Below, in pieces: positions 5,457 to 22,711 of a stretch of 23,414 nt of DNA; positions within the stretch are counted from its first letter, which is position 1, and each line of letters opens with the position of its first letter. The stretch is from a virus. Lineage: Duplodnaviria > Heunggongvirae > Uroviricota > Caudoviricetes. The stretch lies in IMG/VR virus record IMGVR_UViG_2534682236_000019; one strand, 5' to 3'. The translations under genes were made by a program, and so were the position numbers. The notes under the pieces were generated by a model. It did no database searches. It had not been told where the DNA came from and worked only from the letters and a program-made list of their open reading frames with translations.

Positions 5457-6876
5457 TGAACGCATCCCAACATTATGAAATGAGCCGCTCGGGGATTAAG
5501 TAGATGAGTGTGGAACCCCGCAGATTTCCGGCATCATCGTGCCCAACGGGATGCGTTTCGCTCCCAACAGACTGGAGGATCCACACCATGAAATATATCC
5601 CTGTCGGTGTTGATATTGCAAAACATCTTATGCAGGTGCATTTCGTTGATGAACATACCGGAGAGATTATCGATAAGCAGGTTAAGCGTGAGAAATTCCT
5701 TGAATATTTCAGCAACCGTGAACCCTGCCTTATCGGCATGGAGGCCTGTGGGGGTTCTCATCACTGGGCGCGTGAGCTTCAGAAACTGGGACATAAGGTC
5801 AGATTACTCAAAGGCCGGTTCGTCAAAGCATTCGTGATGGGAAATAAAAACGATGTGATGGACGCCCGAGCCATCTGGCTGGCGGTTCAGCAGCCGGTAA
5901 AATCCGTCGCCGTTAAAAGCGAGGAGCAACAGGCTACGCTGGGGTTACACCGAATGCGCCAGCAACTGGTGAAGTTCAGGACAGCACAAATAAACGCGCT
6001 TCACGGTCTCTTGCTGGAATTTGGTGAAACGACGCACAAGGGGCGTGCTGCTTTGGCGAAGGAGGTGCCGGAAGCCCTGGAGCGTCTGAAGGAGCGGCTA
6101 CCGCTCTACCTGATAAACATGCTGGATGAACAATATCAGCGAATTACTGAACTTGATGAACATCTTGACCACATTGAGAAGCAGCTGCAGGCGGTAGCCA
6201 GACAGAATGAAACCTGTCAGCGGTTACTGAACATCCCAGGCGTGGGGCCGTTAATCGCCACCGCTGCCGTTGCCACGATGGGAGACGCCTCCGCCTTTAA
6301 GTCGGGACGGGAATTCGCCGCGTTTATCGGTCTGGTGCCCAGACAGACAGGCTCAGGAGGAAAAATCCGCCTGCTGGGAATAAGCAAACGTGGTGATAAA
6401 TATCTGCGAACCCTGTTTATTCATGGTGCAAGGGCGGCAGCATTACTGACCAAAGAACCTGGTCCATGGATAACCGAACTGAAAAAGCGTCGTCCGGCCA
6501 GCGTGGCAATCGTCGCAATGGCAAACAAGCTGGCGCGAACGGTGTGGGCAATAGCCGCTCACGGACGTAAATACGACAAAAATCATGTCAGTATCAGGCC
6601 TGATTAATCGCTGATACCGATAAACATAAACTCTTTACAAAAGGGTGAATGCAGAAAGGTTGCTCTGGCAGCCAGCGTGATGACAAAGACAGGTAAGACC
6701 GTGACTCACTAAACCTGGATAATCGATTGGGCCTAAAGCCCGCTGAGGAAATGAGGCGTGAGTCGGCGAATTACATAGGGGCTCGCAGCTTCCGGGCTGC
6801 AATAAAGCCGGATATAAAGCTGCAACCTACCGTCGATGTCAGAACAATGGATGCCTTTGCAAACGGGATGCGTTCA
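5457..6876 (+). mobile_element. IS110-family insertion sequence (about 1.42 kb; IS1111-like size and layout), boundaries approximate
   Basis: A single DEDD-type transposase ORF flanked by a perfect 12-13 bp inverted repeat (TGAACGCATCCC at 5457-5468; GGGATGCGTTCA at 6865-6876). Non-coding arms of about 130 bp (5') and 270 bp (3'). Inserted between the island terminator and the next gene. Confidence 0.6.
5588..6607 (+). CDS. IS110-family transposase (DEDD RuvC-like N-terminal domain plus C-terminal transposase domain), 339 aa
   Basis: N-terminal IPVGVDIAKH...GMEACGG...MDARAI and C-terminal GVGPLIATA...FAAFIGLVPRQTGSGGK...ISKRGDKYLR are hallmark IS110/IS116/IS902-type motifs. ATG 5588 preceded by GGAGG. 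Confidence 0.85.
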   Translation: MKYIPVGVDIAKHLMQVHFVDEHTGEIIDKQVKREKFLEYFSNREPCLIGMEACGGSHHWARELQKLGHKVRLLKGRFVKAFVMGNKNDVMDARAIWLAVQQPVKSVAVKSEEQQATLGLHRMRQQLVKFRTAQINALHGLLLEFGETTHKGRAALAKEVPEALERLKERLPLYLINMLDEQYQRITELDEHLDHIEKQLQAVARQNETCQRLLNIPGVGPLIATAAVATMGDASAFKSGREFAAFIGLVPRQTGSGGKIRLLGISKRGDKYLRTLFIHGARAAALLTKEPGPWITELKKRRPASVAIVAMANKLARTVWAIAAHGRKYDKNHVSIRPD

Positions 6877-9315: not shown

Positions 9316-9361
9316 ATTCGTAATGCGAAGGTCGTAGGTTCGACTCCTATTATCGGCACCA
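9316..9361 (+). other. 3' 46 nt of a tRNA-Thr gene (thrW-type), ending in CCA: partial copy serving as att core
   Basis: ATTCGTAATGCGAAGGTCGTAGGTTCGACTCCTATTATCGGCACCA matches the anticodon-loop-to-3'-end portion of E. coli tRNA-Thr (CGU) as I recall it. The upstream sequence does not continue the tRNA, so this is a fragment, not a gene. Confidence 0.8.
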
Positions 9362-9375
9362 TTAAAATCAATAAG

Positions 9376-11960: not shown

Positions 11961-12473
11961 TTTGTTCTCCACGTATATGCGCTGCACCGCGCTGAATTCG
12001 GGTAAAAGGAAGCCCTCACCGTCCGGCGATTATTGAGTCAATTACATTTCCATAAATGCCCCCGTAGGGGCGGTTAGTTTCTCCACAAAACAGAGAAGAA
12101 CACCTGCGGTGGCAGCCGCCCGGATGGATTGGGTTATGAGCCCGTCGTCCGGTGATGCTCTTCTCTGTTTTGTAAAAAGGACGGTACCAGCCGGAAGCAA
12201 GGGTACAAGCTGGTACCGCTAAGACTACACACAGCATAAAGTTGTGGTGCCGGGTGCCTCCCGGTGCCTGGCGAAGGTTGCACACCAGGCGGGTGGGTAT
12301 CCACAGAAGGTCGACTGTCAGCCTCAACCTTAACCCGCGTGCGCTGAGCCGCATTCACCACAACGCTAAGGATTCTCTCTGGTTGAAAATACTTAGCTGT
12401 TATGTGCCTGTCTTTTCACCACTTCAGGCTCGGTGGTATCCTTTTAAGCCCGTATACATAAAAGGAAAATCAA

Positions 12474-12719
12474 ATGACTTTTGATGAAAAAGAACTTGAT
12501 AATGCAATTAATAAAATCATCGTAACGTCGCTCTTTTCCTGTCTCAGCGACACTCAGCAAAAACAGTTCTACGAATCGGCTTTCAACATGATCGAGCGTT
12601 GTTGTTTCTGCGATGCCGACGAGTTACCTGAAAAAATCAGGAAACAGTTGGCTGATGCTCTTCGAGTGCGACTTTCTGACCAATTTTCTGAAATGTACTC
12701 TCCGAATTTGGACAAATAG
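12474..12719 (+). CDS. Small hypothetical protein (81 aa) in an AT-rich insert; reality uncertain
   Basis: Strong RBS (AAGGAAAA, 5 nt). AT-rich. Its 3' end overlaps a convergent ORF by 83 nt, so at most one of the two may be real. Confidence 0.4.
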   Translation: MTFDEKELDNAINKIIVTSLFSCLSDTQQKQFYESAFNMIERCCFCDADELPEKIRKQLADALRVRLSDQFSEMYSPNLDK

Positions 12720-12912
12720 AAAAAGGCCATTTCCATTCAGGGTCTGATGGAAAGACTTCAGCCTGTTCTAAAGCACGGCGTAAAGAGAACACAACTCCAG
12801 CCATAATCTGATGTTTCCCATTGGTCCAGCTATCGCCGCTCTGATCTACAGGGGCGGCTATGTCGTATGACCAAACGACTTCACAGTTATTGTTTAAAAT
12901 CTGGACTTTCAT
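12637..12912 (-). CDS. Small hypothetical protein (91 aa), first ORF leftward of the putative pL/OL; not N-like
   Basis: Internal ATG with AGGTG 6 nt upstream. AT-rich. Not Arg-rich, so not an N-type antiterminator. Confidence 0.4.
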   Translation of the reverse strand: MKVQILNNNCEVVWSYDIAAPVDQSGDSWTNGKHQIMAGVVFSLRRALEQAEVFPSDPEWKWPFSICPNSESTFQKIGQKVALEEHQPTVS

Positions 12913-13119
12913 TTCATACACCTGCTTTAACATGAGTGCCTAGTGGCACAACATGACTCAACGAATCATCCTGGACTTCATATGCCCCAGGCGGCTACTT
13001 CGTGGGCGTCCTGCCTGTTCGTTTTTGACATTTACTGACTGCTTACGACACATGCACCGTGTTGCAACCAGATTTTGTTGTAATCCTGTAGTTGGTCTGG
13101 AATAAAAGATAAAATTAAA

Positions 13120-13156
13120 TTGCGAGATATGCAAGTGGTATTTGCGAGATATGCAA
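13120..13156 (-). promoter_or_regulatory. Putative OL operators / leftward early promoter: two copies of TTGCGAGATATGCAA spaced 22 bp apart
   Basis: A perfect 15-bp direct repeat with dyad half-sites TTGC/GCAA. The same motif family (TTGCGTGATAAGCAA) occurs between cI and cro. On the minus strand the repeats overlap TTGCAT -35-like hexamers. Confidence 0.55.
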
Positions 13157-13165
13157 ATTTATAGG

Positions 13166-13190
13166 TAATAAAAAGCCACCTTTCGGTGGC
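13166..13190 (-). terminator. Rho-independent terminator downstream of cI
   Basis: On the minus strand: GCCACC GAAA GGTGGC followed by TTTTTATT, immediately 3' of the repressor stop. Confidence 0.65.
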
Positions 13191-13210
13191 CGATGGATGG
13201 GATATTGAGG

Positions 13211-13903
13211 TTAATTATGTCTCTTAAGGGTTTGCGACTGACTGATTAAGACCTTTCCAAAGACCATGAATCGGTGTTCGTTTTCGCTAGTAATTCCCCA
13301 TTCACGGTAAATCTGGTTATCAGAAATCACCAGCAGTTTGTCAGGAATCATTTGAAGTCTTTTAACGTATATTTTGTCATCAAAACCAAAGACATATATA
13401 CCATCACCATCAAACTGATTGATGCTGACATCAACGAAGATGAGATCTCCTGGCTCAATGGTTGGACACATACTGTCCCCACGAACGTTGATAACTTTGA
13501 TGTGATTGGCTGGTCGTCCGCCGAACATTGATACAGCATTATCAGTTCTGTATTCGATGGCATGAATCACATCAATGACATCACCGCCCTGGATAAGGCC
13601 ATTTCCCGCACTGGCACTGATATCCAGCATTTCAATACGGAACACATCCTTCACCTGCGCAACATCCTCATTATTACTGTTTTTATATACAGTATTACTT
13701 TTGTGGGCAGAGGTAAAGAGATCAGCAATATCAACACCTAAGCTCTTGGCAATATTACTCAGTGTTTGTTCGGTAAATTGTTTTTGCTTACCCGTTTCTA
13801 AGCGCGAGATGTTCGCCGCATCTACTCCTATCGCTTCAGCGAGATCGGCGATTTTCATGTTCTTCGCTTGGCGAAGTTGTCTGACTCGGTTTCCTATGTT
13901 CAT
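13211..13903 (-). CDS. CI-type prophage repressor: N-terminal XRE-family HTH plus C-terminal S24 (LexA-like) autopeptidase domain, 230 aa
   Basis: HTH segment KIADLAEAIGVDAANISRLETGKQ. C-terminal RGDSMCPTIEPGDLIFVD...YVKRL carries the Ser-Lys dyad arrangement of S24 peptidases. Divergent from cro across an operator region. Confidence 0.9.
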   Translation of the reverse strand: MNIGNRVRQLRQAKNMKIADLAEAIGVDAANISRLETGKQKQFTEQTLSNIAKSLGVDIADLFTSAHKSNTVYKNSNNEDVAQVKDVFRIEMLDISASAGNGLIQGGDVIDVIHAIEYRTDNAVSMFGGRPANHIKVINVRGDSMCPTIEPGDLIFVDVSINQFDGDGIYVFGFDDKIYVKRLQMIPDKLLVISDNQIYREWGITSENEHRFMVFGKVLISQSQTLKRHN

Positions 13904-14261: not shown

Positions 14262-14805
14262 GCATCACTGGAAAGTAGAAAAACAGCCTGAGTGGTACGT
14301 GAAAGCTGTCAGAAAAACTATCGCAGCGTTGCCGGGGGGGTACGCTGAAGCTGCTGACTGGCTGGATGTAACAGAGAACGCATTATTTAACCGCCTTCGT
14401 GCCGATGGCGATCAGATTTTCCCGCTGGGATGGGCAATGATTTTGCAACGTGCTGGTGGAACTCACTTCATTGCTGACGCTGTGGCGCAGTCTGCAAATG
14501 GCGTCTTTGTGTCTCTTCCTGATGTCGAGGATGTGGACAACGCCGATATCAACCAACGCCTGCTGGAGGTCATTGAACAGATCGGCAGTTATTCAAAACA
14601 GATTCGTTCAGCAATTGAAGACGGTGTAGTGGAACCGCATGAGAAGACAGCAATTAACGACGAGCTGTACCTCTCAATTTCGAAGCTGCAGGAGCATGCA
14701 GCACTGGTCTACAAAATTTTTTGCATTTCAGAAAGTAATGACGCCCGCGAGTGTGCAGCTCCGGGCGCCGTGGCGTGTCGTGACTGTGGAGAAACTAACG
14801 CATGA
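14254..14805 (+). CDS. CII-like regulatory protein (large CP76/186-CII-type family), 183 aa, GTG start
   Basis: GTG 14254 with AGGAGG 6 nt upstream. Position after cro. Family assignment from memory of lambdoid prophage gene order, moderate certainty. Confidence 0.6.
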
Positions 14806-22375: not shown

Positions 22376-22711
22376 ATGCCTCATAACCCAAATACCTGGC
22401 CGGACTGGCTGGAGTTGTTTCAGAGCTGGTGGCGTGGAGACACACCGCTGGGTGCAGTGATTATGTCGATCGTTATGGCTGGTTTGCGCATCGCCTATTT
22501 TGGCGGTGGTGGTGGCTGGAAGCGAAAAACGCTCGAGATTTTGCTATGTGGCGCTCTGACGCTGACCTTTGCATCCGCTCTTGAGTATGTCGGATGGCCT
22601 AAATCACTTTCTGTTGCCATTGGTGGTGGGGTGGGGCTGATCGGTGTCGATGCTATTCGTGGGGCTGCAATGCGAGTAATCGGTAACAAATTTGGTGGCT
22701 CTAAGGAGTAA
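22376..22711 (+). CDS. S: Class I holin, lambda S-like (111 aa from internal ATG)
   Basis: Three hydrophobic segments and C-terminal ...GGGVGLIGVDAIRGAAMRVIGNKFGG similar in pattern to lambda S (...[22 protein letters not shown]). Immediately upstream of the R endolysin. Confidence 0.7.
   Translation: MPHNPNTWPDWLELFQSWWRGDTPLGAVIMSIVMAGLRIAYFGGGGGWKRKTLEILLCGALTLTFASALEYVGWPKSLSVAIGGGVGLIGVDAIRGAAMRVIGNKFGGSKE

Follow-up and report, generated by a model that had tools for sequence, protein, structure and literature searches.

The window analysed here is a stretch of 23,414 nucleotides (nt) from a phage of the class Caudoviricetes (IMG/VR record IMGVR_UViG_2534682236_000019), in which a self-complementary block at positions 12040-12470 lies next to the gene yfdR. 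From comparative analysis, we consider it probable (about 0.75) that this block encodes a three-part leftward RNA module, in which a small RNA (sRNA) of ~190 nt ending at an intrinsic terminator (T1) is followed by a 97-nt tRNA-like three-way junction and by a small hairpin before the next gene (Table 1). The sense strand of the block is the minus strand, and the region is non-coding. A first-pass annotation, which gave no strand, had treated the block as one unit and had listed a phage-encoded structured non-coding RNA among its options; that option proved to be right, and the block consists of several independent elements instead of one.

The landmarks from which that annotation started are all present in the sequence. 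They include a perfect 15-nt inverted repeat (12085-12099 and 12159-12173, with 59 nt between the arms), which can be extended to 25-nt arms with 84% complementarity, a perfect 10-bp stem at 12182-12191 and 12209-12218, and GGTGCC repeats arranged in tandem (CCGGGTGCCT / CCCGGTGCCT) at 12250-12269. The block is also GC-rich as described, with a GC content of 0.58 at 12050-12349 versus ~0.43-0.49 in the flanks. When both strands of 12040-12470 were folded, the minimum free energy (MFE) was -182.5 kcal/mol on the minus strand (z -7.1, matched by none of 100 shuffles), compared with -163.7 kcal/mol (z -4.1) for the plus strand.

The claim that no convincing open reading frame (ORF) exists in the block held as well. 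Translations are of low complexity and rich in Arg and Cys, minus-strand ORFs match no PHROG family, and the sole PHROG match in the block is a weak one, covering 23 residues of one plus-strand ORF. Moreover, substitutions relative to phage ST64B are spread evenly over the codon phases, as 12/11/16 (p = 0.58), and 22 indel columns occur within 187 nt. Given these ORFs, the missing PHROG matches, the absent codon periodicity and the indels, the 'frameshifted hypothetical protein' placed at 12043-12362 (-) by the NCBI pipeline (Prokaryotic Genome Annotation Pipeline, PGAP) in an identical genome is most likely a mis-call. That the block is a decayed coding gene, or a functionless recombination scar, is accordingly the least probable of the explanations considered and can hardly be expected to hold. 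The PGAP pseudogene call and the hypothetical proteins annotated here in several phage records speak for this reading, as does the mosaic locus, with its swapped cassettes and its missing orf31/orf32 homologues relative to SfV. However, compensatory changes and G-U pairs that are valid on one strand only preserve the helices of the block, and a homologous RNA, sRNA-17, has been detected experimentally. The recombination site or scar proposed at first pass survives in a weak sense, in that the sRNA interior is swappable and a deletion junction borders the block on its left, but the maintenance of helices by compensatory changes indicates selection for RNA structure and not decay.

Judged by homology, the upstream half of the module is a new allele of the sRNA-17 / STnc100 / PasD superfamily of prophage sRNAs, with the ends of sRNA-17 and an STnc100-like interior. 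In Escherichia coli K1 RS218, sRNA-17 is a 193-nt RNA of an mEp460-type prophage, defined by 5'/3' rapid amplification of cDNA ends (RACE) and Northern blot, and the genes that responded most to its deletion were yfdR and yfdP (Sun et al., 2020; PMC7719688). According to the published primers and RACE, its ends are 5' CGTTGTGGTGAATGCGCAGG and 3' ...GGTACCGCTCTTTT (PMC7719688, Table S2); for our comparisons the sequence was rebuilt from the published primers and mEp460. Both RNAs occupy the same locus, upstream of yfdP/Q/R in SfV/mEp460-type prophages, and share the 5' motif CGUUGUGGUGAAUGCG (95% over 21 nt by BLAST), the closing helix, and the GGUACC...GGUACCG terminator (89% over 47 nt) with its U tract. 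Their lengths are 193 and ~191 nt, and a tRNA-like junction follows directly at both. Both ends of the window sRNA were assigned by homology from those that RACE gave for sRNA-17, the 3' end falling in the U tract after T1. Since the window carries CGTTGTGGTGAATGCGG at 12365 and GGTACCGTCCTTTTT at the terminator, which are the conserved ends of the sRNA-17 locus, the RNA would run from ~12366 to ~12176. In contrast, the ~105-nt interior and the linker are unrelated, identity does not extend over the whole 193 nt, and the sRNA-17 paper would class the window allele as a 'degenerative' form; reported expression, ArcA control and phenotypes concern the RS218 allele only. By its ends and its synteny, the block is a member of the sRNA-17 locus family with a different interior.

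Unlike sRNA-17, which was reported without an Rfam homologue, the window allele matches STnc100 (RF02076). The covariance-model scan suggested at first pass gave nothing at the gathering threshold (47 bits), but at the E-value threshold the full STnc100 model (1-206) aligned to 12172-12394 (-) with 43.0 bits and an E-value of 6.2e-8. By the Rfam threshold the block thus falls outside STnc100, yet it is clearly homologous. The alignment also explains two of the features noted earlier, the 10-bp stem being the terminator hairpin, followed by CCUUUUU, and the GGTGCC repeats being a conserved hairpin. Within it, CACCGGGAGGCACCCGGCACCA matches the STnc100 consensus, and the canonical STnc100 carried by an Stx2a phage contains this stretch too. 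STnc100 is related to the Hfq-bound sRNAs PasD1 and PasD2 of enteropathogenic E. coli (bioRxiv 10.64898/2026.05.13.724894). The window RNA resembles STnc100 and PasD as a prophage RNA of ~200 nt with a UGGUG/CACCA closing helix, a GGUGAAU motif, the hairpin CCGGGAGGCACCCGG and a Rho-independent terminator, the likeness to PasD being judged from its description and not from sequence. The STnc100 architecture is present in full: closing helix, internal hairpins including CCGGG-AGGCA-CCCGG, and terminal terminator. For canonical STnc100, the usual setting is the late operon, either after stx2 or close to genes of the Fels-1 type. Such a canonical copy (153.8 bits, in the late operon 75 nt after stx2B; PMC12370729) is not followed by a junction and differs in position from the window copy, which belongs to the early-left operon. 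One Stx2a phage carries both canonical STnc100 and the early-left locus, which are therefore paralogues.

In related loci, at least four unrelated interiors (~90-115 nt) are found between the common 9-bp closing helix and the common terminator, and the four cassette types share one fold of closing helix, several hairpins, single-stranded linker and terminator. Window-type interiors elsewhere score 39.5 bits (SfV), 37.5 bits (118970_sal3) and 35.1 bits (ST64B) with the STnc100 model, which does not match mEp460-type or Stx2c-type interiors. The terminator and junction of mEp460 and Stx2c phages are nevertheless 94% identical to those of the window, and only their interiors differ. Just upstream of the sRNA, the hairpin that overlaps its 5' end by one base is shortened or absent in the mEp460-type allele.

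Sequence features of an Hfq-dependent trans-acting sRNA were found, namely a Rho-independent terminator, a U5 tract and a 22-nt single-stranded linker. This U/G-rich linker is a candidate seed or Hfq-binding stretch, and its motif UGCUGUGUGUAGUCUU is seen again ahead of the terminator at loci of Buttiauxella, Enterobacter and Pseudocitrobacter. Competition of the linker with the 3' strand of the basal helix of the junction (P1) was considered and set aside, as no consistent extended helix was obtained.

The junction starts at the base after the T1 U tract. The search for compensatory changes proposed at first pass was positive here, in an alignment (A2) of 26 junction sequences from at least 12 genera. 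In A2, 96.6% of pair cells are standard pairs, versus 36-53% with the partners slid, and 10 of the 32 pairs show changes on both sides (e.g., G-C/C-G at 15:11 and G-C/A-U/G-U in P2). The covariation score was reached by none of 500 shuffles, and RNAalifold independently returned the same fold. P1 measures 18-20 bp across the alignment, and the internal loop between P2 and P3 is invariant. A covariance model built from A2 (R1) scored 110 bits on the minus strand of the window and 40 bits on the plus strand, many junction G-U pairs being valid on the minus strand only; it found no second copy in the window. The helices of the junction are conserved by compensatory change, and the junction is coupled to a terminator: of 49 distinct upstream contexts, 47 have a T-run ahead of P1, and 44 of these also show a stable hairpin immediately before it. 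In the MFE fold of the window, U5 pairs with GGAGA, which lengthens P1 to 25 bp.

The terminator-junction segment also travels independently, since by BLAST 12060-12222 is 94% identical in Stx2c phages and mEp460, while a 51-nt core matches Klebsiella and Pantoea phages. Pattern scans gave hits in at least 120 viral contigs and at 38 genome loci, and junction-bearing genera comprise Escherichia, Shigella, Citrobacter, Enterobacter, Kosakonia, Mixta, Buttiauxella, Leclercia, Phytobacter, Pseudescherichia, Pseudocitrobacter and Erwinia; at a Pantoea locus, the core is found under a different long stem. The third part of the module, the small covarying GC hairpin, occupies its position in nearly all loci, although with different stems (GACCUU..GGGUC, GGCGGU..GCCGCC and others), and is followed by the Shine-Dalgarno sequence and ATG of the next gene and by no U tract. 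This hairpin and P4 often share a U/G-GCAG loop-to-stem motif (UUGCAG, UGGCAG or GUGCAG) in different genera, which hints at a common ligand or a duplication. No family of Rfam 15 matches either this form of the junction (Form 1) or a second form described below (Form 2) at E<=10, and in the literature searched by sequence no paper with the junction core or the sRNA motifs was found. The junction is thus a well-supported and apparently undescribed RNA motif, and a candidate new tRNA-like motif.

Table 1. Elements of the RNA module and of its surroundings, with positions in the window.
Feature	Position	Strand	Remarks
Likely early-left promoter pL	13105-13138		TTGCAT-17-TATCTT promoter-like site, left of repressor gene
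Conserved 35-nt segment TGTGCCTGTCTTTTCACCACTTCAGGCTCGGTGGT	12403-12437	unassigned	Upstream border of the module
Hairpin GCUAAG...CUUAGC	12365-12397	-	Just upstream of sRNA 5' end, one-base overlap
Small RNA, ~190 nt (~191)	12176-12366	-	sRNA-17 homology, STnc100 match
Closing helix, 5' strand GUUGUGGUG	12356-12364	-	Pairs with 12241-12249 (CACCACAAC); perfect 9-bp inverted repeat
Exchangeable multi-hairpin cassette, ~105 nt	12250-12355	-	Enclosed by closing helix
Hairpin CCGGG-AGGCA-CCCGG (GGTGCC repeats)	12250-12264	-	Most conserved STnc100 hairpin
U/G-rich single-stranded linker UUUAUGCUGUGUGUAGUCUUAG	12219-12240	-	Unpaired in centroid fold; between closing helix and terminator
Intrinsic terminator T1	12174-12219	-	Stem 12182-12191 / 12209-12218, extendable to ~12 bp, then CC and U5 (12174-12178)
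tRNA-like three-way junction (Form 1), 97 nt	12077-12173	-	Covariation, RNAalifold, covariance model R1
P1 basal helix	12154-12173 with 12085-12104	-	Includes the 15-bp inverted repeat
P2, 5 bp	12148-12152 with 12120-12124	-
P3 (GGG/CCC)	12141-12143 with 12131-12133	-	Closes loop CUCAUAA (12134-12140)
P4 variable arm	12116-12119 with 12106-12109	-	14 to ~40 nt among relatives
Invariant 22-nt core GACGGGCUCAUAACCCAAUCCA	12125-12146	-	Columns 28-49 of A2
Invariant tail GGAGAAAC	12077-12084	-	Able to pair with the U tract
Small GC hairpin GCCCC-UACG-GGGGC	12058-12071	-	Between junction tail and yfdR

On the minus strand, the core of the junction reads CGGGCUCAUAACCC, and its tip, GGG-CUCAUAA-CCC (12131-12143), is invariant in all 26 sequences. 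GGG/CUCAUAA/CCC matches the anticodon arm of bacterial initiator tRNA (E. coli metZ) exactly. Three G:C pairs in the anticodon stem are the accepted hallmark of initiator tRNA, and in 26/26 sequences the tip shows the make-up of a tRNA anticodon arm, with a 7-nt loop, U33, a purine at position 37 and the three G:C pairs. Outside this arm the window form departs from tRNA, with a basal helix of 20-25 bp instead of an acceptor end and with neither a D arm nor a T loop; P1 simply continues as a 20-bp helix where an NCCA acceptor stem would stand. ARAGORN called no tRNA in the window and the Rfam tRNA model matched neither form at E<=10, so that a true tRNA or transfer-messenger RNA (tmRNA) was rejected. 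Among bacterial tRNA-like RNAs, we compared the YrlA Y RNAs and the RNase P-processed C4/CI RNAs. A long stem with a tRNA-like domain recalls the former, but Y RNAs mimic the acceptor/T/D region and not the anticodon arm, and the junction was not found by the Rfam YrlA and C4 models.

Form 2, from Klebsiella and Raoultella phages, shares the core and P2 with Form 1, but here a 6-bp acceptor-like helix closes them and NCCA comes next, so that an acceptor end is added to the anticodon arm. In 13 of its 16 loci, it follows the final tRNA of a late-operon array at a spacing of 5-7 nt. Its helices are 95% paired, versus at most 50% when slid, with compensatory changes in a T-like hairpin; it has no D arm, and in L003 it was not called by ARAGORN. 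The loci comprise L003 1477-1544 (-), L016 4242-4308 (+), L034 6277-6344 (+) and 13 others; the arrays hold Asn, Arg-UCU, Thr, Phe and Met/Ile-CAU tRNAs, and a strong terminator stands ~90 nt beyond Form 2. One contig (L100) carries both forms on the same strand, in the listed order of a long-stem form at 6047-6145 (105 bits, loop CUCAUUA) and an acceptor-stem form at 14600-14703 (40 bits). Core variants are limited to the ST64B loop, CUCAUUA (position 37), and to a U at stem position 39 in Form 2.

These observations bear on another explanation, which concerns the junction only and is compatible with an sRNA in the upstream half. The junction could act in trans as a tRNA mimic or decoy, showing an initiator anticodon arm to a protein that recognises tRNA-fMet, such as a VapC/MvpT-type anticodon-loop nuclease, methionyl-tRNA synthetase (MetRS) or the 30S P site with initiation factor 3 (IF3), and would then protect or redirect initiation during induction. 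Nucleases of the VapC/MvpT type are carried by plasmids of Shigella, Salmonella and E. coli. A decoy would fit an invariant 22-nt core amid covarying helices and a tip identical to the initiator arm, as well as the place of Form 2 as the last 'gene' of phage tRNA arrays, with tRNA-like spacing, acceptor stem and NCCA. The occurrence of both forms on one contig and the restriction of natural variants to loop position 37 and stem position 39 are also in its favour. On the other hand, no protein partner is known, Form 1 has no free acceptor end, the junction lacks a D arm or T loop and is rejected by ARAGORN and the Rfam tRNA model, and the literature searched holds nothing on it. We therefore regard a decoy as unlikely, though less so than the other alternatives. 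With the same reserve, the junction could, at long odds, be the founding member of an undescribed class of D-arm-less phage tRNA mimics, serving as a sponge for a tRNA-fMet-targeting factor or as a tuner of translation initiation in phage development. Such a class, were this improbable case to hold, would have two forms, one embedded after an sRNA terminator and another that is free, CCA-ended and closes late-operon tRNA arrays.

Several further pairings of the junction were tried and rejected. Pairing of the CAU loop with the start of the next gene (AUGAG) does not hold, because K-12 yfdP really starts ATGGCT with its own Shine-Dalgarno sequence, the window yfdR offers only AUG, and Form 2 has no adjacent gene. 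For a pseudoknot between AAUCCA and GUGGAG, 4-5 pairs are possible, but both partners are invariant and one is missing in Form 2, and kissing of the P4 loop with the loop of the downstream hairpin fits some E. coli alleles only. Matches of an 18-mer outside enterobacteria (Acidimicrobiia, Bacteroidota, spirochaetes and others) were likewise discarded, with ~35 chance matches expected in 596 Gb (estimate) and most of them without surrounding structure. One such locus, L147 2544-2623 (-) in an Acidobacteriaceae metagenome-assembled genome, forms a long hairpin with a 10-bp GC-rich base, a 7-bp second helix and GACGGGCUCAUAACCCAAUCC at its tip; it scores 36 bits with R1 and lies just upstream of a Shine-Dalgarno sequence and ATG, and given the ~35 random 18-mer matches expected it could be chance. 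Within the window, the start of a lambda-family holin gene (ATGCCTCATAACCCAAATAC) at 22379-22390 (+) shares the 12-mer CTCATAACCCAA with the junction loop and 3' stem in the same sense, a match with ~0.003 expected by chance in the window (estimate) that surfaced in an open-ended scan.

The block is found at 100% identity in many E. coli O157:H7 genomes, within a thrW-integrated prophage, and some part of it is present in 2788 of 5426 complete E. coli genomes. Related sequence has 95-98% identity in Shigella phages SfII, SfV and SfIV and in several E. coli phages, and ~78% in Salmonella phages ST64B and 118970_sal3; the CPS-53 prophage of E. coli K-12 has lost the whole module. In the identical genome, the minus-strand genes are ordered as integrase, a helix-turn-helix (HTH) protein, yfdT, a phage protein, yfdR (start at 11961; the HD hydrolase of the first-pass annotation) and then the block, beyond which come a plus-strand ORF of 81 aa, a CI-like repressor gene (13211-13903, -) and a divergent cro-like gene. 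The early-left operon, on the minus strand of the window, extends away from the repressor gene in the direction of yfdR, xis and int. At all loci compared, the gene downstream of the module is the first of the leftward operon, usually a YfdP/SfV-orf32 homologue. The window has lost the homologues of SfV orf31/orf32 at the deletion junction that forms the left edge of the block, and yfdR therefore takes this place.

A TTGCAT-17-TATCTT site just left of the repressor-gene terminator, overlapped by two TTGCATATCTCGCAA copies (candidate repressor operators), is likely, from its sequence, to be the early-left promoter pL; it was identified by reading the sequence and is not among the sites listed by a consensus promoter scan. 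At that position, pL would place the block ~730-1060 nt into the leftward early transcript, with the RNA structures ~730-1020 nt from the promoter. A clean terminator (GGCCACCGAAAGGTGGC and T5) within 13105-13191 closes the repressor gene just before the likely pL. The 35-nt segment at the upstream border of the module is ~94% identical in lambda, P22, HK629, VT1-Sakai and many P22-like phages; its counterparts are located between ral and the divergent sieB promoter, between orf28/ral and sieB in lambda and ending 6 nt before the annotated sieB promoter in P22. It holds a hairpin (ACCAC..GTGGT) with a T-run on its 5' side, sits directly ahead of the sRNA cassette in several genera, and may be a mosaic-boundary or linker sequence.

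In this context, we propose how the sRNA-junction module might work. Transcription that starts at the likely pL, or at a promoter further upstream that is active in lysogens, would end at T1 and thereby release the sRNA, which would act in trans by base pairing, probably with Hfq. By analogy, this would resemble lambda PreS/LPR1, an sRNA that is bound by Hfq, acts on host mRNAs and has its 3' end at the early-left terminator tL2a (bioRxiv 10.1101/2024.10.31.621285). As an sRNA within the early-left operon that ends at an internal terminator, PreS is the closest working analogy, although it has no sequence similarity, measures 68-88 nt, and belongs to a phage with N to act against the terminator and with no junction or R1 match. 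T1 might also gate the passage of transcription into yfdR...xis-int, a role that tL1 and tL2 have in lambda. On readthrough past T1, the junction would fold and lock the U tract into a helix of ~25 bp, a plausible site for RNase III or other processing. Cleavage would free the sRNA from readthrough RNA, and the mRNA downstream would then begin with a structured 5' end.

The need to pass T1 leads to a further alternative, also raised at first pass, that the block is an HK022 put-type element, whose nascent RNA would bind RNA polymerase, acting through the beta-prime zinc-binding domain, and so permit readthrough of terminators into xis and int. The put RNAs are ~70 nt long, with two stem-loops in a V shape and two similar copies, placed at +1 to +3 of pL or ~270 nt after pR (PMC9378689). 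The junction shares with HK022 put that it is a conserved structured cis RNA in the early operon of an N-less lambdoid phage, and a strong terminator within the operon calls for some readthrough mechanism; the earlier remark that no N-like gene is evident stands, the 98-aa ORF beside pL being a function-unknown PHROG and not arginine-rich. However, the junction differs from put in size (97 nt), in architecture (three-way, on a 20-bp basal helix) and in its distance of ~930-1020 nt to the likely pL. It also lies downstream of T1, the very terminator in need of suppression, and has a single copy in the window, with none at pR. R1 found no match at lambda or P22 loci, and a second form in tRNA arrays makes no sense for put. 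An antiterminator of this kind is thus very unlikely, and we retain the sRNA-junction module as the preferred reading.

Several points weigh against that reading. The STnc100 score (43) is under the Rfam gathering threshold (47), and the RNA detected so far is that of the homologous RS218 allele. In the promoter scan, no convincing sigma-70 promoter adjoins the predicted 5' end of the sRNA, and the sole -10-like hexamer seen nearby on reading the sequence (GAGAAT, 12372-12377) has no -35 partner, so that the 5' end may arise by processing. The invariant core yields no covariation, and the alignment therefore does not indicate a use of the tRNA-like tip. In most genera outside E. coli, a C:C mismatch interrupts P1, and a perfect RNase III duplex is consequently not conserved. 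Because of this mismatch, and because the tRNA-like tip is left unexplained, the processing step is the weakest part of the mechanism. Hfq binding, trans targets, RNase III cleavage and an effect on int/xis are proposals drawn from sequence features. Furthermore, in our view the rise of yfdR/yfdP after sRNA-17 deletion may stem from polarity of the resistance cassette.

Other features of the region were noted alongside the module. Two convergent ORFs, at 12474-12719 (+) and 12637-12933 (-), overlap by 83 nt and have full-length matches to the function-unknown families phrog_3311 and phrog_3195; NCBI annotates only the plus-strand ORF and the SfV record only the minus-strand one (orf33), and one of the two may be spurious. 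Beside the integrase gene, just the 3' 45 nt of tRNA-Thr (thrW) are present (9318-9362), which is why ARAGORN and Rfam called no tRNA in the window. Left of ~9318, the window is wholly unlike strain 7784, in which intact thrW and proA stand, which points to a prophage abutting another inserted element, that is, a tandem insertion at thrW. The early-right operon of module-bearing SfV, ST64B and Stx2 phages also carries isrK and C4 antisense RNAs of a P1-type immI system (e.g., L001 5964-6152, L170 7895-8083 and L125 5232-5308); neither RNA had a match in the window at the Rfam gathering threshold.

In brief, the window allele joins three literatures that have so far been unlinked, those of sRNA-17, STnc100 and PasD, in an RNA that present annotation labels a frameshifted pseudogene. 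It shows that this sRNA family evolves by swapping interior cassettes between fixed ends, which would be a quick route to new targets. The junction, with its clear covariation and its invariant initiator-tRNA-like tip, has representatives in at least 12 genera of enterobacteria, but neither Rfam 15 nor the literature searched contains it. Since it is fixed to an operon-internal terminator that would gate xis and int, it may offer a handle on the passage from immediate-early to delayed-early expression in N-less phages of the SfV/ST64B type, which include Stx2-converting phages.

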